From Picochlorum sp. SENEW3 (Eukaryota), in the NCBI GenBank assembly GCA_034226945.1, contig CP120458.1:806001-870000 (forward strand): DNA of 64,000 nucleotides, in the 5' to 3' direction. Shown one piece after another: positions 24,099 to 54,106 of the stretch. Numbering within the stretch: position 1 is the first letter of the stretch; each line of letters starts with the position of its first letter. Under the pieces are notes generated by a model. The model saw only the letters and a list, made by a program, of their open reading frames with translations, was not told where the DNA came from and did not search any database. Made by a program: the position numbers and the translations under genes.

Positions 24099-24506
24099 GA
24101 TGCTTTGATTATTTCTGGCACTGCCCTCGTACGATATCAAATTTGGATCGACTCTACGAATTCCTACACGCACGACTCCCTGGAATGAGCCAAGGCGGGT
24201 CTCGGAGTTTTGATAGAGGCTGGATAAGATTTGTTTCGATCAATCAATTGCCGATTACACCGTGCTGTGTGTGTACATATAGCTATTAAATAAAAAAAAA
24301 CTCGAATATGAAATTCTCGAATCCGCATTGTCACGTCGCAATATAGAGATGCATGAATAATAAAGAAAACCAAACCTTCCCATCAAAGGCTATATTTGAT
24401 AGTGTGTGAGAACTTCCTACTCAGCACAGGAAGTTCTCGAGATTCCTGCTGCTGTAGCATTATTATTATTCGGTAATTCATTAAAAACTTGTTGTAGAGC
24501 AGGAAA

Positions 24507-25922
24507 ATGCAAGTGCTTCATTGCAAGCCACCCGCCTTGTTGGCGGGTATCACCACGACTGTCTTGTCCAGAAAGGCAACATGGACACCACAGTGCGGCA
24601 GGTTTCGCAGCAGTAGAGTACCAGAAAGATTAGAGAAGAAGAAACCAATCATCTTGAATAGGGCAATGCAAAGCGTGGCCGCGTCGGCAGAGACTGTTGA
24701 TGATCCAAGTTTGTACGATCGATTGGAAGCGCTCGCGACCGCAGCGACGAATTTTTTCCCATTGTTTGTCATTTCTTTCGCGATATTGGGTACCATCAAG
24801 CCATCGTCAATGACGTGGCTGCCCCCGTCCCTTCTCTCCTGGACGAGTGGCTTGTCCATGCTGGGCATGGGGTTGACTCTGACATTCAAGGATTTTCAGC
24901 GAGCCTTGTCCAATCCAAAGCAGATTTTGACAGGAGTGACATTGCAGTATACAGTCATGCCAACTTTGGCCTTTATCATCTCACGCATCGCACAGCTTCC
25001 CATCGACATGACGATTGGTCTCTGTGTGATTGGAGCCTGCCCTGGTGGAACGGCATCCAACATTGTCACCTATCTGGCAAAGGCGGATGTGCCGCTGTCG
25101 GTGACCATGACAACCGCCAGTACTCTTGGCGCCGTCATCATGACTCCATTTCTGACCAGCATACTCTTGGGGACCTTGGTGCCGGTGAATGCAGCAGGCC
25201 TGCTCATGTCTACCCTGCAAATTGTTTTGATTCCAGTGCTGGTGGGATGTGCACTGAATCAGTCCTTTCCCAGGACAATGGCCAAAATGGCCCCATTCAG
25301 TGCCTTTGGAGCCGTTATATTGATTGCTGTGCTGTGTGGAAGGATTATGGCGGACAATAGCGCGTCCCTCCTGTCTGCAGGATGGTCTCTGCTCTGCAGC
25401 GTGTTTGCCCTCCATGGTGGAGGATTTCTGTTGGGCTACCTGGTGAGCAAGGCTGTCGGTGTTAAAGAGAGCGCGGCTCGCACGAATTCAATTGAAGTTG
25501 GAATGCAAAACTCTGCTCTCGGAGCTCTCCTCGCGACGCAACACTTTCCGATGAATCCCTGTGCTGCAGTGCCCTGTGCCATCTCTGCCTGCACGCACAG
25601 CATGCTGGGATCCATGCTTGCAGCCATCTGGAGCCGACGAGAACCAGAGGATGTGATCCAAGAGGAAAAAGAACGCCGTGAAAACAACTTGGCCCGTAGA
25701 AAACTGGAAGTGCGATCCTGGATCTCTCGGTGGAGAACAAGGACTGGAGTCTCTCGTGATGTACTTTTTTTGGACGGGGCGAGTGGCCCCATACGAGAGT
25801 GGGTCACGCCGGAGGAGAGGGACATGTACTCGTCCGAGCAGATTGAATTCTTGACCCGCAAACGACAAGCCCAAGTCAACATATTTAATGCCAGCAGTAG
25901 TAGTAATAGTGGCAAGTTATAA
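24507..25922 (+). CDS. Plastid bile acid:sodium symporter family transporter (BASS)
   Basis: MLGMGLTL, QYTVMP, CPGGTASNIVTY, SIEVGMQNS; transit peptide. Confidence 0.92.
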   Translation: MQVLHCKPPALLAGITTTVLSRKATWTPQCGRFRSSRVPERLEKKKPIILNRAMQSVAASAETVDDPSLYDRLEALATAATNFFPLFVISFAILGTIKPSSMTWLPPSLLSWTSGLSMLGMGLTLTFKDFQRALSNPKQILTGVTLQYTVMPTLAFIISRIAQLPIDMTIGLCVIGACPGGTASNIVTYLAKADVPLSVTMTTASTLGAVIMTPFLTSILLGTLVPVNAAGLLMSTLQIVLIPVLVGCALNQSFPRTMAKMAPFSAFGAVILIAVLCGRIMADNSASLLSAGWSLLCSVFALHGGGFLLGYLVSKAVGVKESAARTNSIEVGMQNSALGALLATQHFPMNPCAAVPCAISACTHSMLGSMLAAIWSRREPEDVIQEEKERRENNLARRKLEVRSWISRWRTRTGVSRDVLFLDGASGPIREWVTPEERDMYSSEQIEFLTRKRQAQVNIFNASSSSNSGKL

Positions 25923-26028
25923 TTTATTTTTCCTTTTTTTTGTGTAGTTTATATTTCGTTTCGTCTGCTACTGCTGCTGTTGTGAAGCGATATTCAATAA
26001 ACAACAATTCAATTCAACAACAAGAGGA

Positions 26029-27234
26029 ATGATCTCAACAACAACAAAAGAGCATGTGCTGAAAGATTCGGCAGTAGATAACACTAGAAGTAATACAAAG
26101 AAAAAAAAGCGAACATTTGCAGACGTGGCGACGTGCACAACAACGTCAAGGCAAAAACATGTTTTTCCCTCAGCAGCACTGGGAAGCGACTGGTTGCCTC
26201 AGTTTGCCAAGGCTCGAGTGAGTGAAAAAGAAAAGGCGTGTTCATCATCACGGCTTCCTCCTCCATCGAACGAGCCCTTTGAAGATTGGACGCCGTGCAC
26301 CACAGTGCGCATCTCGTGTGAGACTCTCTCGGAGAAGAAGAAGAAGAATACCAATAATATGAGAATCCGGGATGTGGTCGAGGCGGATCTGCGACACGTG
26401 TCATCTGGCATATATGATCGGGTATCGAATCGTGATGATGAGAATCTTCGGCTGGCCATGACGGCTGCGACGTCGACGTGGACGTTTCCCCAGAGGTGCA
26501 TGTCGCCAGGCGTCTTTCGATCCCTGCCAGATGATGTGAAGAAGGAACGGCGTCACGATTGGAAAGAAGCGCTGTGCTCTGTGTATGACTTGTATAAAAG
26601 CGCAACAGAGCCCTTTGTATTCTATGTGTCGTCTCCAGAGTATCAATCAAGTAGATCAAGCCACCCAAAGTACACAGTCATGTTTGCCGCCTCCAAGACC
26701 TCGAGTCATAAACAACGAATGCACGCCGTTCTGTCCCAATCGACAAAAGGGCTTCGGAGTTTGTTACACTCGTGTGGCATTGGGTTTGAAGCTCCACTGC
26801 TGAAAGATCCCTTGAAGAGTAAAGACCAAGGAGCGAGGAGCATTCTTGTGTTTGAAGGGGCATTGAGGGTCCATGGCATGTTTGACATCCTCTTGAACAA
26901 GGCGATTGGAGGCATGTCCCACGACGATTGTGATGTACCATGCGTGCATGCACCAGGGCCCTTTCGAAACGCCACCATGGTGAAGATTCCATGCCAAATC
27001 CAATCGAGTACCGTGACGATTGGGGGCAGCCATAGCTCGTGGATTCCACCATGGACGATTCGTCGAATTCTGCAATGCTTGGTGTCAACAGAAGACTACA
27101 CGATATGGTTAACGCCGGTTCCAGACGTGTCTCGTGGATGCATGAATTCGTATGGAGAATGTCTCTTGAGTATTGAATACAATAGTGGCATGTTTACAGC
27201 AGTCAAGGCCAGTGCACCCCTCGCACCCGTGTAA
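26029..27234 (+). CDS. DONSON: DONSON (downstream neighbour of SON)-like replication factor
   Basis: DWTPCTTVRI, WKEALCSVY, FYV..YTVMF, SQSTKGLRSLL, VHGMFDILLN, PGPFRNAT match the DONSON block order. Confidence 0.75.
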   Translation: MISTTTKEHVLKDSAVDNTRSNTKKKKRTFADVATCTTTSRQKHVFPSAALGSDWLPQFAKARVSEKEKACSSSRLPPPSNEPFEDWTPCTTVRISCETLSEKKKKNTNNMRIRDVVEADLRHVSSGIYDRVSNRDDENLRLAMTAATSTWTFPQRCMSPGVFRSLPDDVKKERRHDWKEALCSVYDLYKSATEPFVFYVSSPEYQSSRSSHPKYTVMFAASKTSSHKQRMHAVLSQSTKGLRSLLHSCGIGFEAPLLKDPLKSKDQGARSILVFEGALRVHGMFDILLNKAIGGMSHDDCDVPCVHAPGPFRNATMVKIPCQIQSSTVTIGGSHSSWIPPWTIRRILQCLVSTEDYTIWLTPVPDVSRGCMNSYGECLLSIEYNSGMFTAVKASAPLAPV

Positions 27235-27236
27235 TA

Positions 27237-28157
27237 TTATAACAAATGATGCATGCCCCGAATCAGCATTTCGCGCAGCTGCCATCGAGGCGGATGGTGC
27301 TTTCCATCCTGCCCAATGTACCCGGCCTCTTCCTGCTGAAGCGCCCAATAATAATACACTCTGTGAACCTCTTCCGGCCCACCCTCTACCACATTCCCAT
27401 GCGTATCCCTCGTACAATTAATCTGCTGACATGTAAACTGCGCTACAATAATCGGCGAGTCGTCCAGCATTTTCAAATCCACCAACTCGACCTCGGACGT
27501 GTCCAGCAGCGTCGGATCTGGCACCAGCCCAGCCTCCTTTTGCGCTTTAATAATCCCCGTCAGCCGCTCAATCATCTCGGGAGAACAATACTCTTTAATC
27601 ACGTCCTCTTTCCCTTGGAGATATGCCTTGATGACGACTGGAACATCTGATTTCACCCGCTGCAGAAACTCAACCATGTCAAACCCAACATCCCTCGACC
27701 GAATCTCTCGAAGCGCCTGCGCAGCCTCTGATTCCTGAAAGAATGAATCAGAAGCATCCTGAATTCGATGCACCAATGGCGAATCTGACATTTCCCATCG
27801 CTCCTTCATGGCGTCAGCCACATCCTTGCCCTTGCTCCGCAGCCTCTGAAAAAACGGATGATCGTAAATCGTCTTTTTATCACTATTACTATCTGCTATC
27901 GGTGCTATGTCTGTTCTATCAGATGTCTGAATATTGTCTGCCTTTTCAGAAGCTCCTCGAATGGCTGATGCTCGAGGAGGCTCTGGGAGCACTGCCTTGT
28001 ACATTTCCCTCAGAAATGACGACGACGTGGCTTCTTTTGTTTTGTTGCTTTCCGATTCCGATGATGATGCTGTGTATTCGCGCAGGAAGAGAGGAAGAGC
28101 ACGACTATTACTACTAATAATGCGTCTTCGTGACGCAGCAACAAACAACAATGACAT
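27237..28157 (-). CDS. TIM44: Mitochondrial import inner membrane translocase subunit Tim44
   Basis: WEMSDSPLV, ESEAAQALREI..RD..F, PIIVAQFTCQQINC, WQLREM; presequence. Confidence 0.92.
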   Translation of the reverse strand: MSLLFVAASRRRIISSNSRALPLFLREYTASSSESESNKTKEATSSSFLREMYKAVLPEPPRASAIRGASEKADNIQTSDRTDIAPIADSNSDKKTIYDHPFFQRLRSKGKDVADAMKERWEMSDSPLVHRIQDASDSFFQESEAAQALREIRSRDVGFDMVEFLQRVKSDVPVVIKAYLQGKEDVIKEYCSPEMIERLTGIIKAQKEAGLVPDPTLLDTSEVELVDLKMLDDSPIIVAQFTCQQINCTRDTHGNVVEGGPEEVHRVYYYWALQQEEAGYIGQDGKHHPPRWQLREMLIRGMHHLL

Positions 28158-28199
28158 GTTGTTGTTTATATTTTACACAAAAATAAACATTTGATTGAT

Positions 28200-29115: not shown

Positions 29116-30304
29116 TCAGGCCCAGATGCCAATGACCAGCATGATGGCTGCTCCAGCAAAGTAAGATGCAAAGCAAAGCACCTGGATTACTACAGGTTGG
29201 ATTCGGAGCCACAATGCCTGTGATTTGACGGCATTCATGTGATCCGCAAGCGATAGGTATATCAGGGCCCCAGCAGCAATGGCATCGAGTATTCCAGTGA
29301 CCAGGAGGTATGCAGAGCTGTTGACATTGAGAGATTCTCTAATGCCGATGCCGACAGCAACACCAATGGGAGTCATGACCGAGTAGATCAATGCAAACAA
29401 GAGTATCAATTTGCCACCAATTCCAAACTCTGATGCACTGGAGCCAAGCGCAATTCCCTCAAAAAACTGCATTTTTTGGCATGGTTTGTTCATCTGAAAC
29501 AACAACAAGAGTATAAAACATACATACCTGATGGAATATAATTGCGATGAAAAGCGATACAAATGAAGAGGAGGATGTGACGCCAAGGGCAATACCAATC
29601 AGAACCGAATGAATCCCAATAGACACTTCAGAAACAATCAACTTTGTCAATAGTGCCCGGTAACGTTTTTCTGGACTCATGGATTTAATTACATCTCCAT
29701 TGTATTTTGGCTGTGAGAAGGTTCCAGAAAATTGTCTGCTGTGAATCACCTCTAGTGTGAATGTTCTTTCGATCGGAATCTCTTCATCATCATCATCATT
29801 GTTGTTGCCTTCTGAATGCTTATCAATTTCTTGCATTACAATAAACAGCAAGTAGTCCAGAGTCTGCAGAATCACAATGGTAATGACAACAAAAAGCAGA
29901 GCCCACGAGTCATACGCATCGTTCCAGGATTCTGGTAGACACGGACTCGATAAATTTTCGCTTGCATCACCGAGCATGTGTACAAACCCTACGGCGAGCA
30001 TCACGCCGCTACCCGCAAAGGCTCCGAGCTTGACAGCGAGACGCAACGTGGCCGATCTTCTCCACAAAAGTAAAAGAGGAAAAGCGGCACCCAAAAATGA
30101 CACAACCCAAAGAACAAACACGCTCGCAATCGCGAGGTCAAGGTTGTATGATTCTGGAGTAGAGTCGCCGCAGTCCTCATTGTCGTCACCGAGGACAACG
30201 GGTGAGCAAAATAAGAGCAAAACTATTATTTTAAAATACATTGGGATATCCTTTTGTCGCAATACGCCTGTCCTTTCACTTTTCCGTTTTTTGGGGATTG
30301 GCAT
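29116..30304 (-). CDS. ZIP family Zn/Fe transporter, 1 intron (likely start Met at 30241)
   Basis: GSGVMLAVGFVHML, HSVLIGIALG, FHQ|FFEGIALG, TPIGVAVG, GIWA. Confidence 0.93.
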
Positions 30305-31542
30305 TATTGTTATTCTGTCACGTCTTCTTATTAAGAACGTCTACTACTACTACTACTGTGGAGTAGTTGCAGGAATCCCTCCAAAGTGATGGTTACGTCA
30401 AGACGCTCGGCCACTTGGCCCCATTCCTGGCACACTCCTCCAGACTTCTGGAGCCATCAGCACCCACATCGTTCACGAGGAACTAGACATAGCAAACATC
30501 AGCGCTATTGCTACGCATCAAATAGCGTCACCTCCATACTTGGATTGCAGATTTCGTCAGAGACCGCAGCTTATCTCGGCTCAGCTGGACCCTGCAGACC
30601 TACAGCCAAAGACGGTGGCTAAGCAAGTGAAAGAGGCCGGTCCACCAGCACGGCAGCGGCTGGGGGAAACTACTTTGCCAACAACATTCTTAGGACCAGA
30701 CTGAACGCGTGAAGGCACGAAACATGCCTCTTGCCAGGCTTTGAATGGTGTGTCCAGCCTTTCAGGAACAGCGCGAAGATGCCATCCATCAGTTCTTCGA
30801 CGACCACCAGCTGGAACACGCTATAGCGTATGTCCCATTGCGTGCGGTTCGACGGGGCCTAGTTTAAGGCCTCTTCCATACCTCTATTCCATAGTAGTAT
30901 TTAGTGCAGTATGGAATCTTTAGCTGGTTGGTTGCTGGTACACGGGAGTTTCGGTGCTCCAGGGTAGACTGTGAGAATGTCTATTTAGTGTCAGACAGGA
31001 GGAAGAAAGAAGACATGTCCCCACAGCCATGTCTAGGAAGAGGTTGGAGAAGACACAGCCTTGATTGACGAGGCCAGCAGCAGCCAGCCACAGATCCCGT
31101 TGTGGCAACGTGTGGGCAGATTTTTACATCGAGTGCTCGGCAAGCACTTTCAGAACATTCGTGATTAGGTGACCCTTGGTCCGTCCCAGAGCCAACAACC
31201 AGTCCACGCCAAGGGTTTGGGTGATCCCATCCCGAGGTGTGGGAGTGAGTTTTTAGTGAGTGCTACTGCTCTGTCTCCTGACAGGCACGGGCCACCAGGA
31301 AGGAACCACTTGCAACGTGGGCGCTTCTCATTGACACCCCAAGCTTCCTCAGTCGCACAGACAGCCGGGTTCCCTCACGAGAAGGCCGCCCACGCAAGCA
31401 GCAACTTTGTGTCACTCTCTTGCTTCTTCAGCACACCGCCAAGGGAGAGAACACGGCTGAATTAAAAAAATATATATTCGCCGCGAAAGATTTTGGTGTT
31501 TCTATTCACCAGATATTCCGGCATATCATATATCCTGTATCA

Positions 31543-31658
31543 TCCATATTCGAAAGAGCGCAGGTTCGAACCCTGTCACGATCACTGTCGGAATTTCGAA
31601 ATTGACAGAAATATCCGATCAGATCGTGTGGCCGAGCGGTTAAGGCGTATGGGTAAGG
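31543..31658 (+). tRNA. trnL-AAG: Circularly permuted tRNA-Leu(AAG): 3' half 31543-31584, 37-nt linker, 5' half 31622-31658
   Basis: Acceptor stem GATCGTG/CACGATC plus discriminator A; D arm GCC/GGC with A box TGGCCGAGCGG; anticodon stem TATGG/CCATA, loop GT-AAG-G|T; type II variable arm TTCGAAAGAGC; T arm GCAGG-TTCGAAC-CCTGT. Confidence 0.9.
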
Positions 31659-34150
31659 TCCTTAATTAGAACATTAAATATGTTCCGATTATCGTTTTGC
31701 AACATCTCCGTTTGAAGCAAGTGCACCACTTGGTGCAGCTTCCAGCACTTGCTTCTAGGTTTTTTTTACATTCCTTTTACAACACGATACAGACATGCCT
31801 TCTATTTGTATTTAGAACATCAAAAAACGTTCTAAGATTCATTTTGAATCAACAAGGAACTTGTTGTGATGGACCCCTCGGATCTCCTATAGGAGATATA
31901 GCCATGGTTCCATCTTAGAGATCCATAGTATCTCTTATCATCTGAACGTATCCATGAAGATCACCATATATAATATTCTACTTAAATCTATAATCAGGTC
32001 TTAATTAGATATATTAAGTAGGAGATCTTCCTTCCTACTTACACTTGTTGAATTGACCAGCAATTCAAACTGTGGACAGTTACCAGAAAAGATGTGTGGA
32101 TAGCCTGCGTGGTGGATTTCGATACTTTTCTACGGCAATTACATCCAATTGATGATGAGATTTGGATTTATTTGTACTGCCTAGGAAATCCTTGTGCTTA
32201 GACCCATTTTCAGCACGGACACCAATATAGCTCATCCAATCAAGTCATCTCCCGATCATTGGGACGAAATATTGTACTATGCAGAGCGATTTTCATCAGA
32301 ATGGACTGCGTATGGCACCAACTAAATTTTTGACTTGAAAAAGACAGTCCCCAGGGATACTGTCATGGCGAGTTGCCGATTAGTGCAGATAGGCCTCTGC
32401 ACTCCTATATGTGATGACCTTTTAAACAACGTGAGATATAAAAGTGTGCTCGTCATCTGCATCGAAATGATCTCTTCCTACTACATTGGCAGAAATGACA
32501 TTTGGAGCAAGCATATTATGTTTGGAAATTTCTTGAAAGGTTGTCACAATTGGCTTTACAGGAAAAGCCAAACATGTGGGCATGAACGAAACGATTCACT
32601 GTCAATCCGATGGAAGAGAAATTTATAAGTCTAGTGCGATTGGAATGTGATGAGATGAGTCCACCAGGAGCACAATTGTCAGCTTCAACAAATACGAAAG
32701 TCTTCCTCTTTGTTCAATGCTGACAGAAGAAAAGACATGGATCTTGCGTTTCGGAATGCGCATTTCAATATTCTGGATCTATTGTCGGACTTTTATGGCT
32801 GATGTATCATATAAACACTAGATCAAGGTTTTGATTGTGGGAGTATGGGTATCATCATATCTCACAAGAAGTTTGGATGATGACAATCTTCTCACACATT
32901 TGTTCCTCTTGTCCCGTCAATTCACCGATGCTTTGCGATTCATTCTGGAATTAGATCTAATCTGTTATCACTGAAATGCAAACTTAAAGCTTCATGGGAG
33001 CTTTCTGTGACGAGAGGGAAACGACGCCTCTGCGGTCAACAAAGGGTATCAGGAAGCCCCACGCGCGTATAATGTAATGTTGTTCTTTGAGCATCTTTAA
33101 TTCAAGATGTGAGGTATCGCATAGGATTGCCACGGTCTTTTCGTGGCCAAGAGGCTGCGGCGACCATGTCGCTGGCATGGTTAGTCACGTGGCAATGTTT
33201 CATATAGACCACATGGATACACTTGAAGAAATTCTTTACGCCGGAAATATGCGTAACATGGACTCGGAAAGGCTTTCCGCGTCTCTCAGTGGTGGCTGGT
33301 TACGTTGTGCACAACGATAACGACCCTATAAGATGAAAGTTGGTGCCTTTGGCATCGTATACACAGAAGAATTGAACATGTATTTTAGTATCAATAAAGA
33401 AAAACTGAACAGTCATGGGCCATTAACGGGCTTCAGGATGTGAAGAAACGATGAAAGACGCTCTTCTTCTTTTCATCGCTTCGGATCTGCTCCCCTGGAT
33501 CCAGATGACGAGCACGGTATGTTTCTGTATCCTGTGGTGTTCCTCTTTCTTCTGACTATCATTTCTAGTACGATTCTGCGCAGATGGGCCATTTGCAGCA
33601 CTAGCAGCAAGGCCTTGCATTGCTACACCAGGAGTATGGTTTTGGTATCCACAAGTTCTTCCTGCCTTGCTGACTACTTTGAAAAGCCTTTCGTCAGATC
33701 ATCCTCCTCATCATTACAGGACAACAGGTATTTTTCCTACTCGAGAGACCTCTGAGAGGTACTCATGAATGGTGTTATCATGTGTCATCTGAATGAGAGG
33801 AAGACATGTACTTTTTTTAAAAACCTACATACAGAAAGAGAGTCCGAATTGAACGCATGGATGCCATATAAATAATTCGAGTATATAGATAATCAGAGGT
33901 ATTTTGGGTGAAGGAAGGGGTGGAAGATGGATGTCCCATCCATGATTGTTCATGTGCTGCATGAAAGGGTGATCAAGGAATGGGCGCCCTTCATGCACTG
34001 TCCGATGTCGCATCACGGTATGGCATCTGTGTTGTTTTTTTTTTTTCAATCTTGGTCATTTATTTATACTTTTATGAGTATTATTATAATATTACAGAGT
34101 GTTATCGGTCTATACAGCGGAGAGTCGGGTACGCAGCAGGTTTTTGGCCG

Positions 34151-34176
34151 TTTCGCGCGCGGAACTCCCCGCGCGA
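34151..34176. promoter_or_regulatory. E2F-like sites and GC hairpin upstream of the HNH gene
   Basis: TTTCGCGC (+) overlaps TTCCGCGC (-); inverted repeat TCGCGCG...CGCGCGA lies ~100 bp before ATG 34257. Confidence 0.4.
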
Positions 34177-34256
34177 CATCTGCAGCGTGTTCTGGTTTGA
34201 TTTAATCGTATATATGATATTTATATTATGTAGGGTAGATTTCAGCTTTTGAGGAG

Positions 34257-37200
34257 ATGGAGAGGCCCAACAAGAAGAAGAAGAAGGAGGCAGCTTCTGC
34301 CAAGGTGCGTCCACCGTCATATCAAAACTTGCTCTCTTTGTGCCCATCCACCTATTGATTTTTTGTTGTTTTTATAATTCAGAAACCTCGAGAACGCAAG
34401 GTGATGAAGGAACTCAGAAAGTCAGCAGAGGCACCTGGCCAACAAACTCTCAACAGCTTCCTGCAGCGGACAGGGCGCAGTAGCAATGATGGTGATGATA
34501 GTACTATCCCTAGTGGCACAGAAAATGTGCAAAGAAATGAGCAACAACCACCATCGGTTGCCGCCCAAGCGGTGGTAGAAGAAGAGACTAGATCTCGAAA
34601 TGATCCAGGTATGTTGGTGTTGTGTTGGAGTGGTTTTGGGGTGTTTTTATCACATTTTTTGCTGTTGCAGATGCTGCTGTTCAGGATAATAATAGCAAGC
34701 AAGAAGAGGAGGTGGTGGATCTTACCACTGTTCCAGAGGATCTTCATGATGATGGTATTCCTGAATCTCAGGATGCAGCATCGCATGCTGAGCAAGTGAA
34801 GGAGGACTATGGTGAGAGTGGCATATCACTAATGCAGCAATTGAGGCCACTCCATGCCCCTGTGTCTCAATCTCGAGACGAAAGAGAATCAAGAAGGCCG
34901 GCAATTCAGGGCTGCATGGCACTTGTTTCTCCGGAGCAATTTGAGTCCTTGTGTGCGATCGGGAGGCAGGCAGTGCCAATCACAGTGGACGATGGCTCGA
35001 GTCATCCATATGTAGTGGACGCTCCTCGTCTGATGCGGGGCATGGGGATCCTTGAGAAGACTGCCCTTGCCCATGCAATTTATTCTGATACGACTTGCCA
35101 AGGAACCTTGTTTAGAAAGGAAGAATATCCCTCCCTGGTGTCTTCTTCGTTAGGAATGTTCGTGTGTGTGGAGGACGTCATAGAGTGGATGATGGAGAAC
35201 CTTGATGGTTTCATTCTCGAGGAAGTGAAAGAAGCCTTTCAACAGCAGCAGTTTGGTGCCTTTGTGAGAATGTTACAGAATCAAAACATGCTACATATGA
35301 TGAAGGACATCTACTCTGGGTATATGCGCCCGACTGTCAAAATAGTCGAGCTAAAGATCTCCATCAGTCTGTTTGATCTCATCCTCCACATCAAGGAACC
35401 TGGAGTCTGCAGAATGTACTTGCTGGAGGATGACCATACTGCTGCTCCTAGTCATGTTCCGGGACTTTTTTGTGATTCGCAAGATAATATCCATCTGTAT
35501 TGGTCGCAGCCATGGCCTCTTGGCGTTGTCGATACTGGGTCAAAGGGAGAGCGTCGAGAACCTTTCTCATGCAGTGATGTTCTGGTCATGTCCAATGGTG
35601 TGATATTCTCGCCAGTCTCTGGACGCGTGAGGTATTTTAATATACAGGGACGTATGATGAGCACATTCAACGAATCTGGCAACCAAAATGTCATTGCAGC
35701 AGCTGATGTCGTGCATGCTGCTTTATATGGTATATCAGTGGAGGAGGTGCGAAGGCTTCGCCAAGATAATGAGTGGGAAACCGATCACTGCCCCATCTTT
35801 CACATGAATCACTCGGTTCATTGTGTACGACTCGCGACTCGGAGTCAAAATATGCAGAATCGAATTTTCGGGAGAGCATCAAAGGGGCGTACCACATATT
35901 TCACGGAGAGGGAGGCAGAAAAGAAGTATGGCGAAGGAATCACAACGCCAGGGAACGATCCAGGGCAATGGATTCCAGCGTATCTTGCTCATCACTCATA
36001 TACTTTGAGAGATCTGGCAGAATTTTGTGCAGAGAATCAGGAAATCAGCATCTCTTTGCAGCGCGTGGAGGGTCTCTGGGTTCAAAAAGACACATCCATG
36101 TTGTGTCGGGTACGCAAGGACGACTACTATTTCATCATGCCGGAAGACTGTCCATTATGTGAAAGGGCCGCGTATCCAAGAATAGATACGACTATTGATG
36201 GAGTCTCGCATCCAGTCCGTGTGCACTCGATATTGCACGACTCTATCATGAGGCATACAGATCCAGAGTACAAACGTCCCCTGGTCCAACGCCTCGAGGA
36301 TGGTCAATGTCACATCATGGTGGTGGATCACGTCAATCGGGATAGAAATAATCAGCAATCTACCACCCGTGAAGAGAATCATAGACGAAAGCTGGCGCCA
36401 CGGATTGGGCATCTTGAACTCATATCCATGAGTGAGAATACCAGACGTGCAATTGGAACCTGTGTATCCATTGAGATTGTAGACAAGTCTAGAGACCTGC
36501 AATCTGACGCAGAATGCACTGGTATGGTGGAGATTTTCGGATTCCTGCAAGAGAATATTGCCAATGTTTCAGTAGAGGCTCTCAGGTATTGGTGGGAGAA
36601 TAATTTCGTACATGGCAACGTGGCAGACATCATCAGGCAAAAAGAGATTTCTATAGCAATGAATAATATCCAAGTGGTCCATCATGGGCGTGTCGATGCA
36701 TGCAAGGTGGTGACATTGAAATGTCAGGTGGTTCAGCAGCTCATGTCAGACCATCATGGACCCTCGGCAACCTGGGTGTTTGTATATTTTGGGAATGAGT
36801 ATCAGCAGACAGTTAGATTCACATGCGGTATGAGTGCGTGCAAGGATCTAATGTATCAGCATCAGCCTCTAGGAAAGGACAAGGTAGACGTCACGGATTC
36901 TGCAATGCAGCAGCTGAGGCCAACAGGCGACTGCATTCGTTTCTACAAATGCATCGCTCGTCCACTGAACAAAACGCCCGACAACGAGCGTACATGGCTC
37001 GTGAATGGACATGTTCCCCTGTCAATGATACTTCAAGAAAAGTACGAGGAGATTGCCAATCATTATAAGCGCCCCTGTGGACATCTCCAGACCTACTGCG
37101 ATGCTGCCAAGGAGAAGATAAAAGAGTGTACTGGTGAGATAAACAGGGTTGGTGGAATCTCTTTGAGCAGATGCCGCGAGGGGATTCGCTCTCAACTGCT

Positions 37201-37513
37201 CAGAATGTACAATGAAAAAGTTCGAATCGATCAAGAACAAGCTGGAGGAAGCAACGAGCATACGTCCAAGTGTCGCTCTTGTTTGATGCATGCCATTCAG
37301 CTCATGCCGGCAGAGAATGCACACAAGACCTTTTTGTGGTCCTTGGATGGCTATGAGGGCAAAACGTCTAACAGCAATGGTGCCATTCTAGAATCTATGA
37401 TTCAGAACATCATCAATTACCGAGAAGAGATCTTGGCAATCTGGAATGAAGGCCAGGAGGGCCTGGAAGATGATGTGTGGGACATGGTGACAACCTTGAT
37501 CGTTTCTGGTTAA
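34257..37513 (+). CDS. Large (~1040 aa) protein with two HNH endonuclease-like domains; 2 predicted N-terminal introns (~34305-34382, ~34609-34670)
   Basis: ETDHCPIFHMNHSVHCVRLATRSQNMQNR (~35770-35860) and VRVHSILH...VVDHVNRDRNNQQSTTREEN (~36215-36380); NLS KKKKK; PIP-box-like QQTLNSFL; GT-AG sites keep the frame. Confidence 0.7.
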
Positions 37514-37912
37514 ACAAGATCAAGAGGGCATGGGTAGGACTTTTTTTTTAAATCATACTACAATCAGTACTATTCATACAGAATTTTGTAATCATTATAT
37601 CCAAAAGAGTAGTAGGATGAGTAAGAAGGATGAATCCTTTTTCAGTATTGTCCTACCACCGAAAAATAAAAAAGATCCGGATGTGTTCTTTCATTAACAT
37701 CGATTAGAGATGCTTTGTCCTGATTTCTGACAAAATATTAGCCGCCTCGATTTCAGATATGGGGGACATCACCTCTTGGGGATGACCAGGAAACTGTTCA
37801 GACACGGTGGCATCGGATGATGAGCAATCAGGATCTCGCGTGCCTCCTGCCGTAGGCTCAACCAGCTTTTGTCTCTTGTTGTTCGGTAAAACAGAGTCGG
37901 GTGAACCATGAA
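36852..37912 (+). repeat. Direct repeat R1 copy 1 (HNH gene 3' end, intergenic spacer, tail of convergent gene)
   Basis: Near-identical to 39828-40929 apart from a few SNPs and one ~40-bp indel. Confidence 0.95.
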
Positions 37913-39029
37913 CGTGATTGTTGCCTTGTCCTGCTGCTGATGTGTCACCATCACCATCTCCTCCACCTATTGATCGCACCAGACACGATGCATGGCGTGG
38001 CTCCTTCTTGCCATCCACAAGATCCAATGGCCTCTGTCTCTTACTACTCCTTTTCACAAAATCCCAAAAGTCCTGGTCTGGACGAGGGTGGCTAGGCTCT
38101 ACGCCATGTCCTAGGGACGAGACCATCCCCATCAAATCTATGGTTTGATTCTCCTGCCATGGCTGTGGCAAAACCGAATTGGGGGATCCATCAGAGGTAT
38201 CTCCCTGTTCTGTTACGTCACCACCAGCTGCCTCTCTTCTTGGCCGTACCGAACGCACAGCATGCTGTAGTGTGTCGCCATCAAGACCTGATGCTGTCTG
38301 TCTCTTTTCATTACGACTGGATGGGCCTGCATCTCCTCGTGGATTGGTAGCCGTTTCCCTGCGTTTATTTGAGATGGGGATCACTTTAGCTGCTGCCATC
38401 AATGAGATCTGTGCATCCCTAAGGGTTTTGTCTCCAACCGCTCTACTAAAGCTCTTATGTAAATCTCGCTTCAGCAGCTTCCAGTTCTCATTATCTGCGA
38501 GATCCTCATCGCTAGCCCTACACTGGATGTAGGCACACACCTGGACACGTACGCATACCCGTGCTCTAGGTGTTATTTCTTGCGTGGTTGCCCCCACCTG
38601 TTTCGACGCCTCATACACCACCGAAACATCCTGAATGATTTTCTCGTCCTCGGAAAAGAACTGCTGCAGTAACATGTTGAGACACTTGGGCGACACAATA
38701 AAAAAAGAGTGGATTGTTGTGCTCTGCTTCCCCACTCTGTCTGGACAGACGACATGTTCGATACCATCAAAGTGCCTCTTCACTATTGCTGTGACCCTCT
38801 GGTTGATAATATTCCGTTTCATTTCCTTTGGAGTGACGAGTGTATAATGGACAAGCGGCAGTCGTTCATCTTCTAGAAGACTATATTCTATAATGGTCTT
38901 TTGAAATCCACCATCAATCTCACCGTCCTCACATGCCGCCGATATTTTCTGAATCAGTTCGATTCCGCCATCCTCGGATTTTTTTTCACATATGTGCCAG
39001 AAACGTTCAAGTTCTCCGTGATCGGCCAT
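37704..39029 (-). CDS. Orphan protein B (paralog of 40721-41623)
   Basis: ~440-aa open frame from MADHGEL; shares RLP..H, H.VCP, HSFF and an identical ~68-aa C-terminus with B'. Confidence 0.65.
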   Translation of the reverse strand: MADHGELERFWHICEKKSEDGGIELIQKISAACEDGEIDGGFQKTIIEYSLLEDERLPLVHYTLVTPKEMKRNIINQRVTAIVKRHFDGIEHVVCPDRVGKQSTTIHSFFIVSPKCLNMLLQQFFSEDEKIIQDVSVVYEASKQVGATTQEITPRARVCVRVQVCAYIQCRASDEDLADNENWKLLKRDLHKSFSRAVGDKTLRDAQISLMAAAKVIPISNKRRETATNPRGDAGPSSRNEKRQTASGLDGDTLQHAVRSVRPRREAAGGDVTEQGDTSDGSPNSVLPQPWQENQTIDLMGMVSSLGHGVEPSHPRPDQDFWDFVKRSSKRQRPLDLVDGKKEPRHASCLVRSIGGGDGDGDTSAAGQGNNHVHGSPDSVLPNNKRQKLVEPTAGGTRDPDCSSSDATVSEQFPGHPQEVMSPISEIEAANILSEIRTKHL

Positions 39030-39188
39030 GGCTTGTTCGTTGTTCTTTCTCGGTTTTGGTTTGGCAAGTTTCAAAACAAAAACTAAAAGCACCCGCGACT
39101 GTTACGCGACCTTGAGATTATTCTCTGCATATCAATAATAGATATAACACCTATAAATCATGATAGAACGATGGAACAAGAGCCGAAT

Positions 39189-39706
39189 TGACAGAATTGT
39201 CGATTCAAGCTAATCAACGACAACAAGATGTCTCCGGCACCTCGATACAGTCAAAACCGTTCGTGGTAACACTTTCTAGCGAATTATATACAGAAATAAA
39301 GTATATGCGCATGGCAACAATGACATATAACAGCACGTACAAGAGTTTCGAATCCAGGTTGACGACTTGCTACGGTTGACTACTCTTCTCGATATTCTCC
39401 TCTCTGATGAAAAGAAGATATGATAGTCAGTACCTATATTTATAGAGAATTGGAATTCTATTCTTATTACGTCCAAGGTCGAATTCATTTCAAAGAAATG
39501 CTGCGTTTTCTCCATTTTTGAAAATGTTCTTAATGTTCCATACCGTATGTAGTACATGTATGGACATTTGGCAACAGCACTCATACCACGATAGTATCCT
39601 GGTATTAAATTCTATATATATTATTCATTTGACATACTGCTCAGTAAAATGGTAAAGAAGAGAAACGGTAAAAGAGGACCCCGCCGAAAAAGGAAACACG
39701 TCCTTC
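39189..39706 (+). repeat. Direct repeat R2 copy 1 (divergent promoter region plus start of a basic ORF)
   Basis: Highly similar to 41782-42380, with indels. Confidence 0.93.
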
Positions 39707-39827
39707 CGAAGGAGGGACTCTGAGTCAGAGTACCTCGGCAGTACCTCGGCACTCGCGCAACCGAGAGGCTTGAAGATATCGCCGCAACGAAAGATTTCTG
39801 GAGTCTTGTACTAGCAGGCTATACTAC

Positions 39828-40489
39828 TGTATCAGCATCAGCCTCTAGGAAAAGACAAGGTAGACGTCACAGATTCTGCAATGGAGCAGCTGAGGCCAAC
39901 AGGCAACTGCATTCGTTTCTACAAATGCATCGCTCGTCCACTGAACAAAACGCCCAACAACGAGCGTACATGGCTCGTGAATGGACATGTTCCCCTGTCA
40001 ATGATACTTCAAGAAAAGTACGAGGAGATTGCCAATCATTATAAGCGCCCCTGTGGACATCTCCAGACCTACTGCGATGCTGCCAAGGAGAAGATAAAAG
40101 AGTGTACTGGTGAGATAAACAGGGTTGGTGGAATCTCTTTGAGCAGATGCCGCGAGGGGATTCGCTCTCAACTGCTCAGAATGTACAATGAAAAAGTTCG
40201 AATCGATCAAGAACAAGCTGGAGGAAGCAACGAGCATATGTCCAAGTGTCGCTCTTGTTTGATGCATGCCATTCAGCTCATGCCGGCAGAGAATGCACAC
40301 AAGACCTTTTTGTGGTCCTTGGATGGCTATGAGGGCAAAACGTCTAACAGCAATGGTGCCATTCTAGAATCTATGATTCAGAACATCATCAATTACCGAG
40401 AAGAGATCTTGGCAATCTGGAATGAAGGCCAGGAGGGCCTGGAAGATGATGTGTGGGACATGGTGACAACCTTGATCGTTTCTGGTTAA
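39828..40489 (+). pseudogene. 5'-truncated duplicate of the HNH gene C-terminus
   Basis: The 202-aa ORF nearly matches the last ~200 aa of the 34257-37513 product; it lacks both HNH domains and any upstream exons. Confidence 0.85.
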
Positions 40490-40929
40490 ACAAGATCAAG
40501 AGGGCATGGGTAGGACTTTTTTTTTAAATCATACTACAATCAGTACTATTCATACAGAATTTTGTAATCATTATATCCAAAAGAGTAGTAGGATGAGTAA
40601 GAAGGATGAATCCTTTTTTAGTGCCACAGTTTGCCTTTTAAAAGGGTGACAATAAGAAATCTTGTTGTTTACCACCGAAAAATAAAAAAAGATCCGGATG
40701 TGTTCTTTCATTAACATCGATTAGAGATGCTTTGTCCTGATTTCTGACAAAATATTAGCCGCCTCGATTTCAGATATGGGGGACATCACCTCTTGGGGAT
40801 GACCAGGAAACTGTTCAGACACGGTGGCATCGGATGATGAGCAATCAGGATCTCGCGTGCCTCCTGCCGTAGGCTCAACCAGCTTTTGTCTCTTGTTGTT
40901 CGGTAAAACAGAGTCGGGTGAACCATGAA
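39828..40929 (+). repeat. Direct repeat R1 copy 2
   Basis: Copy of 36852-37912 (offset 2976-3017). Confidence 0.95.
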
Positions 40930-41623
40930 AGTCACCACTGCGTTTGCATTGGGTAACCATGCCATGCTCTTCTGGATTGGCAAGGTTTGCTGTTAAATCT
41001 CGTGGTTGCCTCAAGTTTGACCGGTATTTTGCAATGGCTTTTTCCATAATACATCTCTGCGCATGGCCCAGACCATTCCTCTTTCCCTTATAGTCACCTA
41101 AACTGTCGCGTAGGGCATCCACCACGGCAAGAAAGTCATCGCCAAGTGCCCGAGCATCTGCGTTGAATAGGATGAAAGAATACAGCAGAACACGTGCGCA
41201 TTTTCGCTGGGTAGCTGTCATCTTCGTACAGGTACTTTTCGATAGCTCCGAATACACCTGAGAAATGTGCTGCGTATCGTTGGGCAAGGATTGCGTCAGC
41301 GAAGATTCGAGATCCGTATGCACAAACACAAAAAATGAGTGCTCATGGCTGGCTCCTTTCGATGCTTCCGGACACACGAGATGGCTCCACAGATCCTCAC
41401 TGAGTGCGCTTTTGTAACCTGAAGTGACCGTTTTCACATCAACGCCCTCTGGAAAGATGATTTTCTGGTGGAGAAATGGCAGTCGTGCTCTTTGGGGAAG
41501 GCCAAACATGCGTCTGGTATAATGATCAGATCCACCTTGGATCTCGCCCCGCAGCCTGATCCCCTCCAGAGATAATATCTCGTGGAATGTTTCGCTGCAG
41601 ATGATGGTGTTGGTGTTGGCCAT
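40721..41623 (-). CDS. Orphan protein B' (divergent paralog of B)
   Basis: ~300-aa open frame from MANTNT; homologous blocks GEI.GG, RLPFLH, HLVCP, HEHSFF, R.CARV. Confidence 0.65.
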   Translation of the reverse strand: MANTNTIICSETFHEILSLEGIRLRGEIQGGSDHYTRRMFGLPQRARLPFLHQKIIFPEGVDVKTVTSGYKSALSEDLWSHLVCPEASKGASHEHSFFVFVHTDLESSLTQSLPNDTQHISQVYSELSKSTCTKMTATQRKCARVLLYSFILFNADARALGDDFLAVVDALRDSLGDYKGKRNGLGHAQRCIMEKAIAKYRSNLRQPRDLTANLANPEEHGMVTQCKRSGDFHGSPDSVLPNNKRQKLVEPTAGGTRDPDCSSSDATVSEQFPGHPQEVMSPISEIEAANILSEIRTKHL

Positions 41624-41781
41624 GGTTTGTTCGTTCGTTTGCCACCCAAAAAGTAAAAAAGAAAGCAAGAAAATCCAGAAAGAAAAGCACCCTGTACCCT
41701 GCCTCTATATCCTCTGCATATCGCGAGCAACAACATATATATAAGCCATATCATCTAAATACGGGATCACAGGCGTGGTTG

Positions 41782-42380
41782 TGACAGAATTGTCGATTCA
41801 AGCTAATCAACTCCTTCAAGATGTCTCCGGCACCTCGATACAGTCAAAACCGTTCGTGGTAACACTCTCTAGCGAATTATATACAGAAATAAAGTATATG
41901 AGCATGGCAACAATGACATATAACAGCACGTACAAGAGTTTCGAATCCAGGTTGACGACTTGCTACGGTTGACTACTACGATATTCTCCTCTCTGATGAA
42001 AAGAAGATATGATAGTCAGTACCTATATTTATAGAGAATTGGAATTCTATTCTTATTACGTCCAAGGTCTTGAAATTCATTTCAAGGAAAAGCTGCGTTT
42101 TCTGAAAATGTTCTTAATGTTTCATCTACGGACTTGCTTCGAAGCATTTGAATTCAAATACGCCAAACTTTGAGGATTGCCGTTGTTAACTACCTCATCG
42201 TCTGAACATTTGGCAACAGCACTCATACCACGATAGTATCCTCGCATTAAATTCTATATATATTATTCATTTGACATACTGCTCCCAAGAACAGTATATA
42301 TACCGTACTGCTCAGTAAAATGGTAAGAAAGAAGAGAAACGGTAAAAGAGGACCCCGCCGAAAAAGGAAACACGTCCTTC
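41782..42380 (+). repeat. Direct repeat R2 copy 2
   Basis: Copy of 39189-39706. Confidence 0.93.
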
Positions 42381-42453
42381 AGAGGGGCAAAATTGAGATG
42401 AAGATGAATTTTAAAAGGGTATTGGTAAGAAATAACAGTGTTGTCGCCGACAA

Positions 42454-43689
42454 TTGCGACCGAAAACATTCATCAAACACATGGACAGTGCATGTTGCCC
42501 GAAAGAAAACCAACCGCTACGGGAGAATCTAGCTACTGACACAGAAAATTATAATGAAGAATCCGGAGCGAATGCCATTGGCGAGGACGCTGTGGATGGA
42601 TCAGTCTCAGACACTCCTCTTGAAGAAGAGGACGTTCGAGATATCCAAAATCCCAATGCATGCTGGAAGAAGCACAGAATCAGACACATTGTGAAAGAGT
42701 ACTGCCCGAGAGTGGTTGTTCAGGGGGAACATTATGGGATATTTGTGACACCCGAGTCAAAAAAGGATTTCGATAGTTCATGTGATTTTGCATATGAGAG
42801 AATGGCGATTGCTTTGATTGAGGACGCAAGAGCTCACAAGTACGATTCGACATGGTCCCAGGAACAAGCAAGATTGTACGTCGATCTGGGTACACATGTT
42901 GCACCATTTGATTGTATTTTTTTCATGTGTAGGACCATCCATGGCTGGAATTATGCCATCAGACAAGCGGACAGCAGGGAGAGGAGGAGTCATCTCATGA
43001 AGGAGTTGATGTCAAGTGCAGAGAAATGGCGGCAAAAGTGGGATTCACGCGATGAAGACGGACGTAGTACGTCACGTATATGGGCAGAAGAAGTTCTGAC
43101 GTACCCACACAAGGATCTGATTCTGTCTCGAAGAGGAAAGACAAAAGCCACCCAAAGATCCAAACGCATGCATACTGGTGGTAATCATGATCTGATAAGG
43201 AACATGCACTCCTTGCTTACTGATCAGCAGTCAAGAACAGAACGTGAAATACAGACACATTCCAGAATACTCTGGACCCCTGAGCAGGACAATTTGCTTG
43301 CTAATACGTTCCTTGAGCTGTCGGAAAAATATTCAGAGGACAGAATATTTATCGAAGTCGCGAAACGAACGTTTCAGTACGTGCCCTTGGTTCGGGAAGG
43401 GGAGAAGGGAGATTTAAGAAAGGCAGCAGACAGAGTTCGATCACGTTGGTGTGTGATTACCTATCATGTCATGGGCTTGAACAAGAGAGAAAAGATGACA
43501 TTCAGTGAAGATATGAAATCAAGAATAGTGGACAATATGAGGAATTATAAAGTTTTCGCAAAGGACAAACAAAAGAAGGAAAAGGTTGAACAAAAGCTGC
43601 ATGAGTTGATGGATTCAAACATTCCCCAGCTGCATGAGTTGAGGAGGTCAACTGATGCAATTTCCGAGAGAAATGATCAAGCTCGATGA
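42454..43689 (+). CDS. Orphan protein with a Myb/SANT-like domain (start uncertain; possible ATG|GTAAGA exon at 42320)
   Basis: WTPEQDNLL...FIEVAK...RKAADRVRSRW fits the Myb W-x-E-D..L / IA / R.RW pattern; 411-aa open frame. Confidence 0.6.
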   Translation: MRPKTFIKHMDSACCPKENQPLRENLATDTENYNEESGANAIGEDAVDGSVSDTPLEEEDVRDIQNPNACWKKHRIRHIVKEYCPRVVVQGEHYGIFVTPESKKDFDSSCDFAYERMAIALIEDARAHKYDSTWSQEQARLYVDLGTHVAPFDCIFFMCRTIHGWNYAIRQADSRERRSHLMKELMSSAEKWRQKWDSRDEDGRSTSRIWAEEVLTYPHKDLILSRRGKTKATQRSKRMHTGGNHDLIRNMHSLLTDQQSRTEREIQTHSRILWTPEQDNLLANTFLELSEKYSEDRIFIEVAKRTFQYVPLVREGEKGDLRKAADRVRSRWCVITYHVMGLNKREKMTFSEDMKSRIVDNMRNYKVFAKDKQKKEKVEQKLHELMDSNIPQLHELRRSTDAISERNDQAR

Positions 43690-43743
43690 ATAACTATTAC
43701 AGTTATTCATTCAATCAGGAGGTCTGTCGTATATACGAGAGAG

Positions 43744-45068
43744 ATGGAGTCCACGTTGCCGGTGGTATTCAAAACCTATCTTCGCAATCTGATTGAGAAG
43801 CGCGATAACCGGGTGGACGATATCAAAGGGACAATAATGCAAAATTTTGCTCTAGGTAACGCCATTCGATTCTTAGATGAGGCGTCAAGATCGCCTAGTT
43901 TGGATATCACCCTGCAGACCAAATACACACAGGTTCTTGAGTCTTTGAGAAGCCAGATGCCGACAGAGCGGGCTGGATTTATTTCCAACATGAATATAAA
44001 TAACACGCATATACAAAACATGGTCGTGAATGGGCATCTGACGCCTGCGGCTGCGGAAATACACACACCCAGCCTTGCAGAGTATGGGGAAAGGCCAAAC
44101 GAAGTACGATACTACATCATCACCTGATCTATTCCAGAGTTATTTGGTATCATGCCCTATGCAGGATACCAGCCGACTCACTCGATTTGTGCTTGAATAC
44201 CTTGGTAAGCACGGGAAATACAAGGAGCCAGCAGAGCCACTCCGCGATGGCAATTTGAATGGAAAGGTGAAAGCCATTCTGCCAGGACACCAGCGCCTCC
44301 CTTTAGCCACGGTGTATTGTGATAGGCATGGCCTAGATGGAAGAGAGAATGCAGTGGTTGCTCAAATTGTCAAGTGCGTACCAAGAAATGTGTTAGATAA
44401 CTGCCTACCCCCCTAGCACTGACATGGCTTTTCCCTACAGGATACTCGATGGACTTGAGAATCAAATTGAGAACAAATCGATGGAGCAAAAGAAGTTCAT
44501 CACGGTTTATAAGGAGTGGTTCCCATTCGAGAATTGGGATCCTGCAGAGATTGTATCAAATTGGGATGGTGTTGGAGGGCAAGTGACAACGAGCAACGTC
44601 TCAGACCAGCATCCAATAGTGCCACTCCGAGAAGACTCATTACGAGTACGGTATCACATTCTTCGGCAGAATGATGACTCCAGATACAACAGAGTAGCAG
44701 AGTGTGAGATGGCCTGTTACAGTAGGGAGGAATGTGTGTGCCCTGAGGGATGTGTTCTTGTATCTGTGACAAGGGTCATTCCAGATGGAGACGATAATGT
44801 CGTAGAAGACCATTCAGTGATTGATTTTGAGCCAAGTGATGAGCACAAGGCGTTCATGGACAGCGAACTGACACTACATGCCACAGTACAGTATGTACAT
44901 GTTGTCACTGTTATTATTATTTTCTCTGTCTGGTCGCAAGATAAGTCATACAATGTGCTATGCAGGTGGCCATATAAACTTGTGATACCAATCCCTGAAA
45001 CAGTTGGGGAGATACGGGAAAGGATGCGGCTCGAGAAGGTAAAAAGAAAAAAAACTTCAGAAATCTGA
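43744..45068 (+). CDS. Orphan multi-exon gene, possibly the spliced continuation of the Myb-like ORF
   Basis: Three consecutive ORFs joined by GT-AG introns (~44104-44164, ~44374-44440, ~44891-44965). Confidence 0.5.
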
Positions 45069-53060: not shown

Positions 53061-53132
53061 ACTCCAGTGGACAACGTGAATAGCTTCTTCCAAGATAAGG
53101 GAAAGTGTCTGGGCCATGAAAACTAACATGTA
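53061..53132 (+). repeat. Diverged copy of the HHL1 3' end
   Basis: actccagtggacaacgtgaatagcttcttccaagataagggaaag...aactaacatgta versus 51688-51762. Confidence 0.8.
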
Positions 53133-53151
53133 TACATCGTACTTATTACTA

Positions 53152-54106
53152 CTATACTTTGGTGAGCTCATCAGATTTGGCCTTCATCAACGCATCAATC
53201 TGCTTGACGTAATCATCCGTGAGTTTCTGCACAACATCTTCCAAATTCTTCCTGCCATCCTCACCGATATCACCATCCTTTTCCAGTTTCTCAATTGACT
53301 TCATGGCATCGCGTCTAATATTCCTCACGGCCACCTTTCCCTCCTCTCCCATCCTACTTGTCACTTTTGTCATCTCTTTACGGCGTTCAGCAGTGAGTGG
53401 AGGCACCTGGAGGCGAATGACCTTTCCATCATTGTTGGGGGTGAGATCCAGATCAGACCCCTGGATTGCCCTCTCGATGTCTGGAATGGCACTAATATCG
53501 TATGGTTGAATGACAAGCAAAGAGGCCTCTGGTGTTGTCACATTGGCAATCTGCTGCAATGGGGTTGGTGCCCCATAGTACTCAACAACAATACGAGTCC
53601 AGCATGGAAGGACTTGCCCTTCCGGTCCTCACCGTCCCGAAATTCCTCTTGACGCTATCAAGAGACTTTTCCATCTTTTCCATCTGCACAGCAGTACATG
53701 GCATGGGGCGGGAGTGAGCATGCAGATTTGATGAATACACAGCGAGAGTTGAGGTGTGAAGACACACGTACCGTTTCCTCCTCCACAGTAAACGCAGCGT
53801 CGTCATCACCTGCTCGGACGATCCATCGCTCGTAATATAACCTACACAGCATCGACATGCATGTTGCTCGCGAATGATCTCGTCGGTACCGTATTCCGTG
53901 GCTACCCAGACCCTGCGGAGGTACCAAGGCACGTACCCTCTTTTTCCAGGCACATATGCCATTTTCCCAGATGTTTTACACAATGTGCTAGTATAGGATT
54001 GCAATCGAGCGCCTAAACACACGGTTCGGCGTGCCTGGCGAGGCATCCCACACGTGGAGGAAGCACAAGTAAAAATGGAACGATGGCTTATTGTACTCTG
54101 CATCAT
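53152..54106 (-). CDS. RRF: Plastid ribosome recycling factor (multi-exon)
   Basis: RTGRASPSMLD, IQPYD, LTPNNDG, PPLTAERRKE, VRNIRRD. Confidence 0.95.

Follow-up and report, generated by a model that had tools for sequence, protein, structure and literature searches.

A spliced Picochlorum gene with two candidate I-HmuI-type nuclease modules and a PIP-like N-terminal motif

We describe a gene at positions 34257..37513 (+) of a 64-kb window, the whole stretch of DNA that was analysed, from Picochlorum sp. SENEW3 (contig CP120458.1, positions 806,001 to 870,000). Our preferred account, held with moderate confidence, is that Picochlorum has here a resident nuclear gene encoding a protein of about 1038 residues, with two tandem modules derived from nucleases of the I-HmuI type, a run resembling a nuclear localisation signal (NLS) and a box resembling the PCNA-interacting protein (PIP) motif. 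The protein would belong to a small family found in Picochlorum and a few other eukaryotes. The account is carried by the profile match of the second module to relatives of I-HmuI, by contigs in which the introns of the gene are spliced out, and by a chromosomal position that is conserved in a distant relative.

Results

Profile comparison with I-HmuI

The two modules are listed here in the numbering of P0001, the open frame of 969 codons at 34604-37513 (+), whose residue numbers equal those of the full product minus 69.

35561..35923, + strand: module 1, probably I-HmuI-like (NUMOD4-like hairpin, then DH...N...N), P0001 residues ~320-440
35783-35788, + strand: codons of D394 and H395 in module 1
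36056..36493, + strand: module 2, predicted His-Me finger of the I-HmuI/HNH_3 type, P0001 residues ~485-630
36326-36331, + strand: codons of D575 and H576 in module 2
36437-36439, + strand: codon of N612 in module 2

The reference query was I-HmuI from the phage SPO1 record. It has 1470 relatives at E<=1e-5, and among the 120 listed nearly all carry NUMOD4 and HNH_3. A profile of the 104 listed relatives of at most 200 residues was compared by hhalign with slices of the family alignment. Module 2 matched this profile with P=1.9e-7 in the first alignment and P=1.5e-7 in a realignment of 18 sequences (probability 94%, 75 columns), over I-HmuI residues 31-106. The two clades of the family also matched when taken separately (clade I, P=4.4e-6; clade II, P=2.1e-5). 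The match extends beyond the DH...N motif to the upstream GYxxV...VHRLV region, in the family YPRI...VRVHxIL, and to the T..EN helix. The Asp-His dyad and the Asn of module 2 align with D74, H75 and N96 of I-HmuI, which we take to be its Asp-His dyad and a metal ligand.

Module 1 gave P=0.01 and 0.007 against the same profile (probability 4-5%). Its alignment is collinear with I-HmuI residues 6-108 and places VMSNG..SGRVR on the NUMOD4 hairpin and DH on D74-H75; the clades fell in the same register when compared separately (P=0.075 and 0.098). None of 30 column shuffles of each module reached the observed values, the best being P=0.056 for module 1 and P=0.035 for module 2. Reversed columns gave P=0.42 and 0.41, respectively, and P was 0.35 or higher for four other family segments.

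These profile alignments lead us to regard module 2 as a genuine module of the I-HmuI type, homologous to the relatives of I-HmuI, and module 1 as probably of the same origin. The first-pass annotation of this DNA had read two HNH motifs of the homing type here; this holds for the second, while the first, together with its NUMOD4-like stretch, is only suggestive.

A number of searches weigh against homology to HNH nucleases. Pfam HNH_3 matched a 140-residue fragment round the second motif over 12 residues, with 18.1 bits (E=0.0021) where the gathering cut-off is 24.8, and this partial match was obtained only for that fragment of the window copy. HNH_3 was found in none of five homolog fragments and in one of 19 whole members, at E=0.73. 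The whole protein matched no Pfam family, and neither did module 1. Searches of the PDB by sequence and by family profile (E<=10 for the latter) returned nothing, and NCBIfam and PADLOC nothing relevant. A hidden Markov model (HMM) of the I-HmuI relatives scored the family proteins at 6.1 bits or less, no better than other open reading frames (ORFs) of the window or reversed decoys. The best PHROGs reached E=0.28-0.35, among them phrog_4578 (HNH endonuclease) against the first motif at E=0.35, and tblastn against phage records gave eight records, all at E>=4. Compared with each other, modules 1 and 2 gave P=0.23 and 0.08, which does not support an internal duplication.

With every profile-to-sequence search failing in this way (Pfam, PDB, NCBIfam, PHROGs, the I-HmuI HMM), the resemblance to HNH nucleases could be a coincidence of short motifs in an orphan protein of unrelated fold. 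The ESM Atlas gave nothing useful for the whole protein. For residues 485-630 it placed HNH_3 and His-Me clusters on top (0.91-0.89), a level that 4-10% of shuffled proteins reach; we treat this result as a lead, short of proof. Against coincidence stand the length of the module 2 match, which includes the GYxxV...VHRLV region and recurs in each clade, and the shuffled, reversed and other-segment controls, all of which remained at P>=0.035. We consider a chance resemblance very unlikely.

Gene structure and splicing

The contigs of four public sequencing runs were compared with positions 33800-38000. One run, X5, comes from a relative that is about 97% identical (66 differences in 2007 nt); its label as RNA is a guess, and we read it as RNA from its joints and from adapter sequence at a loose end near 37582. 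From the ATG at 34257, the spliced product has 1038 residues. The parts of the gene, with untranslated region abbreviated as UTR, are as follows.

33884..34017, + strand: first 5'-UTR exon seen (X5 record 25 begins at 33884)
34018..34097, + strand: 5'-UTR intron 1, 80 nt, GT..AG (X5 joint 34016>34097, cut +1, depth 210)
34129..34233, + strand: 5'-UTR intron 2, 105 nt (X5 joint 34126>34232), containing TTTCGCGC
34257..34304, + strand: coding exon 1, 48 nt, 16 codons, MERPNKKKKKEAASAK (from the sequence)
34272-34286, + strand: NLS-like basic run KKKKK, within coding exon 1
34305..34382, + strand: coding intron 1, 78 nt, GT..AG (X5 joint 34302>34381, cut +2, side 71)
34383..34608, + strand: coding exon 2, 226 nt, ending in phase 1 (from the sequence and the joints)
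34609..34670, + strand: coding intron 2, 62 nt, GT..AG (X5 joint 34605>34668, cut +3, side 51)
34671..37513, + strand: last exon, 2843 nt including the TAA stop at 37511-37513

X5 contigs join 34304 to 34383 and 34608 to 34671 and also skip both UTR introns. The contigs of the DNA runs retain all four intron intervals, as in X14 record 10 (33915-36959, no differences). Because the RNA-like contigs lack both coding introns, the large exon is joined to the two short ones before it, and the gene is expressed and spliced as predicted. This bears out the earlier description of an intron-bearing gene with two 5' exons and an exon of about 2.8 kb, for which splicing in RNA data had been proposed as a check: the X5 joints match both predicted introns. 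KKKKK, QQTLNSFL, VMSNG..SGRVR and both DH...N motifs, all named in that description, are present in the translation.

The transcript starts at 33884, where the X5 contig begins, or earlier, and its spliced leader exons, within 33884-34256, hold eight upstream ATGs. For the second UTR intron, the 105-nt skip was computed as 34127-34231, which ends in GG..GT without ambiguity; the shift by 2 nt to GT..AG is our interpretive reading.

The deposited SENEW3 model P0020 (LOW QUALITY PROTEIN, 1398 residues) is 100% identical over the region searched, which marks the window as nuclear DNA of that strain, and is wrong at both ends, having upstream sequence added at one and being bridged at the other to a duplicated fragment at 39815-40489. 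It shares with the models P0002 and P0023 an N-terminus identical to coding exon 1. Deposited Picochlorum models begin at an upstream ATG at 33980, via an acceptor that differs from that of the RNA-like contig. Among 35 listed differences between the last exon and X5, a subset of the more than 66 differences, 16 are synonymous and 19 non-synonymous.

Family and genomic position

Among 1.84 billion representative proteins we found 13 relatives (representative clusters), to which further look-ups added paralogs and split models. All named members are from Picochlorum (SENEW3, BPE23 and renovo). A tree of 13 sequences has two deep clades, and within Picochlorum it separates a B paralog from an A group to which the window copy belongs; Picochlorum sp. 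BPE23 has the paralogs P0002 and P0022/P0146. Full-text literature searches returned no description of the family.

A metagenome contig, L001, carries an ortholog that is 37-38% identical, in which no counterpart of the last ~150 residues was detectable (truncation or a diverged exon). This gene lies a few kb from a trio of genes encoding an SBF transporter, an unknown protein and Tim44 (L001 6693-10385), and the order and relative orientation of these three match those at 24498-28172 of the window. The proteins of the trio are 69% (SBF), 29% (unknown) and 61% (Tim44) identical between the two. The nuclease-like gene, for its part, stands inverted with respect to the trio. Since chance placement beside the same trio is very unlikely, we take the gene to have occupied this locus ever since the two lineages split.

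The ORFs around the gene encode ordinary eukaryotic proteins, among them Clp1, Las1, Tim44, starch synthase and methylmalonyl-CoA mutase. No inverted repeats of at least 24 nt were found in 30300-44400, nor terminal repeats, and searches for tRNAs and Rfam families, including group I and II introns, found none in the window. In a collection of viral contigs, none of the 14 pattern-matching stretches encodes a relative.

As judged from sequence and synteny, a domesticated resident gene accounts for this pattern better than an active element does. The first-pass annotation had left both options open and had proposed a virus or a mobile element as the source, likening the HNH motifs to those of phages and giant viruses. 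The conserved position beside the SBF-unknown-Tim44 trio agrees with domestication. The idea of a mobility enzyme of an undescribed element loses ground to the syntenic locus and the lack of such inverted repeats, and that of a giant-virus source to the absence of any confirmed stretch among the viral contigs.

The PIP-like box

One further feature lies in the second coding exon.

34440-34463, + strand: PIP-like box QQTLNSFL, residues 36-43 of the 1038-residue product

A strongly basic stretch precedes it, with 12 Lys or Arg among the first 25 residues. The paralogs within Picochlorum carry QQTLNIFL and QQTLNSFL. Positional counterparts are KGTPDIRGFF, near the N-terminus of P0015, and KGTKPLEAYF in L001, where a short first exon (ATG at 1637) is followed by a phase-1 GT..AG intron. 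The common pattern G-[QT]xx[LI]xx[FY][FL] falls in the first 45 residues of the proteins of Picochlorum, P0015 and L001, lineages that are otherwise about 40% identical. Over 22,160 residues from other ORFs of the window it turns up three times (1.3e-4 per residue), a background figure that overstates the significance because the pattern was defined after the data had been seen. That a short hydrophobic motif is kept within an otherwise unalignable region argues for a function.

Whether this function is binding to PCNA, as the match of QQTLNSFL to the PCNA-binding consensus had suggested, is where the evidence divides. QQTLNSFL fits the PIP consensus Qxx[ILM]xx[FY][FY] save for the L at position 8, and three lineages have such a motif near the N-terminus. 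Against binding, the Picochlorum box ends in L, the counterparts TPDIRGFF (P0015) and TKPLEAYF (L001) lack the Q, no PIP-like motif was seen by eye in the N-termini of clade II, and the APIM motif was found in none of eight proteins. By analogy with ZRANB3, we infer that the motif may tether the enzyme to PCNA at sites of replication or repair.

Conservation of the catalytic-type residues

In module 2, DH and EN are kept in all 11 alignment rows. Module 1 keeps DH in 13 of 14 rows and its last Asn in 11 of 11, and at the position of the first Asn eight of 11 rows have Asn and three have Gln. This conservation fits a working active site. Three observations count against one: where module 1 aligns with the metal-binding Asn, clade II has Gln; neither module conserves the middle structural Asn of HNH; and the lineage P0008/P0016 lacks the helix of module 1.

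Alternatively, the protein may have been exapted as a catalytically dead DNA-binding or scaffold protein, whose modules would serve sequence-specific DNA binding in chromatin or transcription. The loss of the structural Asn from both modules fits such a history, as does the variable insertion, up to ~27 residues long, which splits the hairpin of module 2. Constraint also looks relaxed, with non-synonymous changes making up 19 of the 35 listed differences to X5.

A TAZ zinc finger, a protein-interaction domain, likewise points in this direction. It is inserted in the C-terminal region of two members, P0021 (residues ~821-914, E=6e-7) and P0144 (residues 369-447, E=4.8e-7, above the Pfam threshold), and is cleanly absent from both window copies (window 37130-37150 and the duplicated fragment). 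On the other side, the dyad and the metal-aligned Asn of module 2 are invariant, and the DH of module 1 nearly so, across clades separated by long branches; because catalytic-type residues are kept over such distances, a dispensable catalysis is disfavoured. We place the dead-protein alternative on the unlikely side.

Two further regions of the protein are conserved in the family alignment.

34901..35560, + strand: conserved N-terminal domain, P0001 residues ~100-319, with the motif SHVPxLF...HLYWSxPWPLG (from the alignment)
36494..37510, + strand: conserved C-terminal region (from the alignment)
37259-37282, + strand: H-x3-C-x2-C, with conserved H886, C890 and C893 in open-frame numbering

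The N-terminal domain matched no Pfam family at E<=10, and the C-terminal region matched none either. The H-x3-C-x2-C may be part of a zinc knuckle whose fourth ligand is unconserved.

Paralog mosaicism and local duplication

Identity among the paralogs is uneven along the protein. The window copy and the B paralog P0002 are 90-94% identical in the disordered first 150 residues and 48-78% identical elsewhere. Compared with P0146, an A-type ortholog, it is 82-100% identical at residues 151-450 and 601-850 and 52-56% identical at residues 501-600. Such a mosaic suggests patchy gene conversion.

A second, partial copy of the gene lies downstream.

39815..40489, + strand: duplicated fragment, the last 224 codons, 98% identical, with no upstream part of the gene

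It belongs to a tandem segmental duplication (36848-39706 and 39824-42380) that holds the last third of the nuclease-like gene and a convergent minus-strand gene. Loose ends of contigs at 36848 in runs X1 and X14 represent a second junction context and are consistent with a real duplication. The duplicated minus-strand genes, at 37704-39101 (465 residues) and 40721-41704 (327 residues), match no Pfam family. Their 3' ends are 99% identical and the DNA upstream of them 95-97%, with cores only 27% identical, so that they look like exchangeable cassettes between conserved flanks. Another pair of direct repeats, 98% identical and 10.6 kb apart, lies at 53077-53376 and 63683-63982.

Several paralogs in one genome (P0002 and P0022/P0146 in BPE23), a mosaic of identity among them and a partial tandem duplication carrying the 3' third of the gene are also what would be expected of a selfish, still mobile homing-endonuclease gene of the free-standing kind, which would spread or homogenise its copies by cutting related loci and having them repaired by copying. 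Such a gene would hardly be expected to have four spliceosomal introns and a conserved N-terminal motif, or to keep its position by Tim44 in a relative so distant that the housekeeping proteins share only 61-69% identity. It has neither terminal repeats in 30300-44400 nor relatives on viral contigs, and 13 representative clusters in so large a protein collection are unlike an expanding element. Nor is the setting that of a mobile homing gene: the introns are of the spliceosomal GT..AG type, the Rfam search found no group I or II intron in the window, and the position is syntenic. We regard continued mobility as unlikely and prefer to see the gene as a domesticated resident.

Sequences upstream of the coding region

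TTTCGCGC lies at 34151-34158, 99 nt before the ATG, and had been read as an E2F-like promoter coupling the gene to S phase. The sequence is present at that place. The motif TTTSSCGC has six matches in the window where 5.5 are expected, and 49 of 100 shuffles reach six. The site also falls inside the 105-nt 5'-UTR intron, and the transcript can be traced to a position at least 267 nt upstream of it. We rejected it as an E2F-like promoter because it occurs at chance frequency and is intronic instead of upstream of the transcript start; for the same reasons it is not counted as a sign of S-phase control.

Further upstream, the ~3.5 kb at 30341-33880 contain no ORF of at least 200 residues, and the GC content falls to 0.42 in the bin 32001-34000.

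Discussion

The homology of module 2, the splicing of the gene and its conserved position are the established parts of the mechanism that we propose; for the rest we argue from analogy. From its N-terminus onwards, the protein would consist of a basic disordered region with the NLS-like run and the PIP-like box, a conserved domain, the two modules and a C-terminal region with HxxxCxxC. The NLS-like run and the PIP-like box would direct the enzyme to nuclear DNA and to the PCNA on it, in the manner of ZRANB3. Each module might then nick one DNA strand, as I-HmuI does, and the pair could nick or break duplex DNA. Alternatively, one module could nick while guided by a second that only binds.

The closest known system is that of I-HmuI, with its NUMOD4 (PF07463), HNH_3 (PF13392) and PF22083 domains. 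Enzymes of this type act as monomers of two domains that bind DNA and nick one of its strands (PMC3428280). Module 2 shares with I-HmuI the strand-helix region, the DH dyad and the T..EN helix, and module 1 aligns collinearly, including the NUMOD4 hairpin, although weakly. Unlike the phage enzyme, which is encoded in an intron, the Picochlorum protein is encoded by a nuclear gene that has spliceosomal introns of its own, lies outside any self-splicing intron and occupies a conserved chromosomal position. It also differs in having two modules within ~1038 residues, large extra domains, an insertion in the hairpin of module 2 and a Pfam score below threshold.

ZRANB3, a vertebrate SNF2 translocase, offers a second comparison. 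PCNA recruits this HNH nuclease by way of its PIP and APIM motifs (PMC5481773). What the two proteins would share is a design idea, an HNH-type nuclease combined with a PCNA-interaction motif and acting on nuclear DNA, with PCNA binding of the Picochlorum protein being conjectural. Unlike ZRANB3, the Picochlorum protein has neither an SNF2 domain nor an APIM motif, and its HNH modules are in tandem and of the I-HmuI/HNH_3 type. We therefore see ZRANB3 as an analogue and not a relative.

A bolder proposal can be built on these elements, in which a host-controlled, PCNA-tethered tandem nickase, domesticated from an I-HmuI-like homing enzyme, would make breaks at replication forks. These would drive patchwork gene conversion between the paralogs of the gene and within the cassette-like pair next to it, so that the whole would work as a system of recombination or diversification in a eukaryotic nucleus. 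We consider this highly improbable.

This uncharacterised family is best described as nuclear genes of eukaryotes for a domesticated HNH nuclease of the phage type. HNH homing nucleases of that type are known to be encoded by selfish genes, and to our knowledge there are few examples of their capture as nuclear genes that are spliced and keep a conserved position. Picochlorum species are transformable, which leaves the family open to direct genetic tests. If the protein is active and bound to the clamp, it would be the second independent HNH nuclease wired to PCNA, after ZRANB3, and the first to be built from tandem nickase modules of the I-HmuI type.

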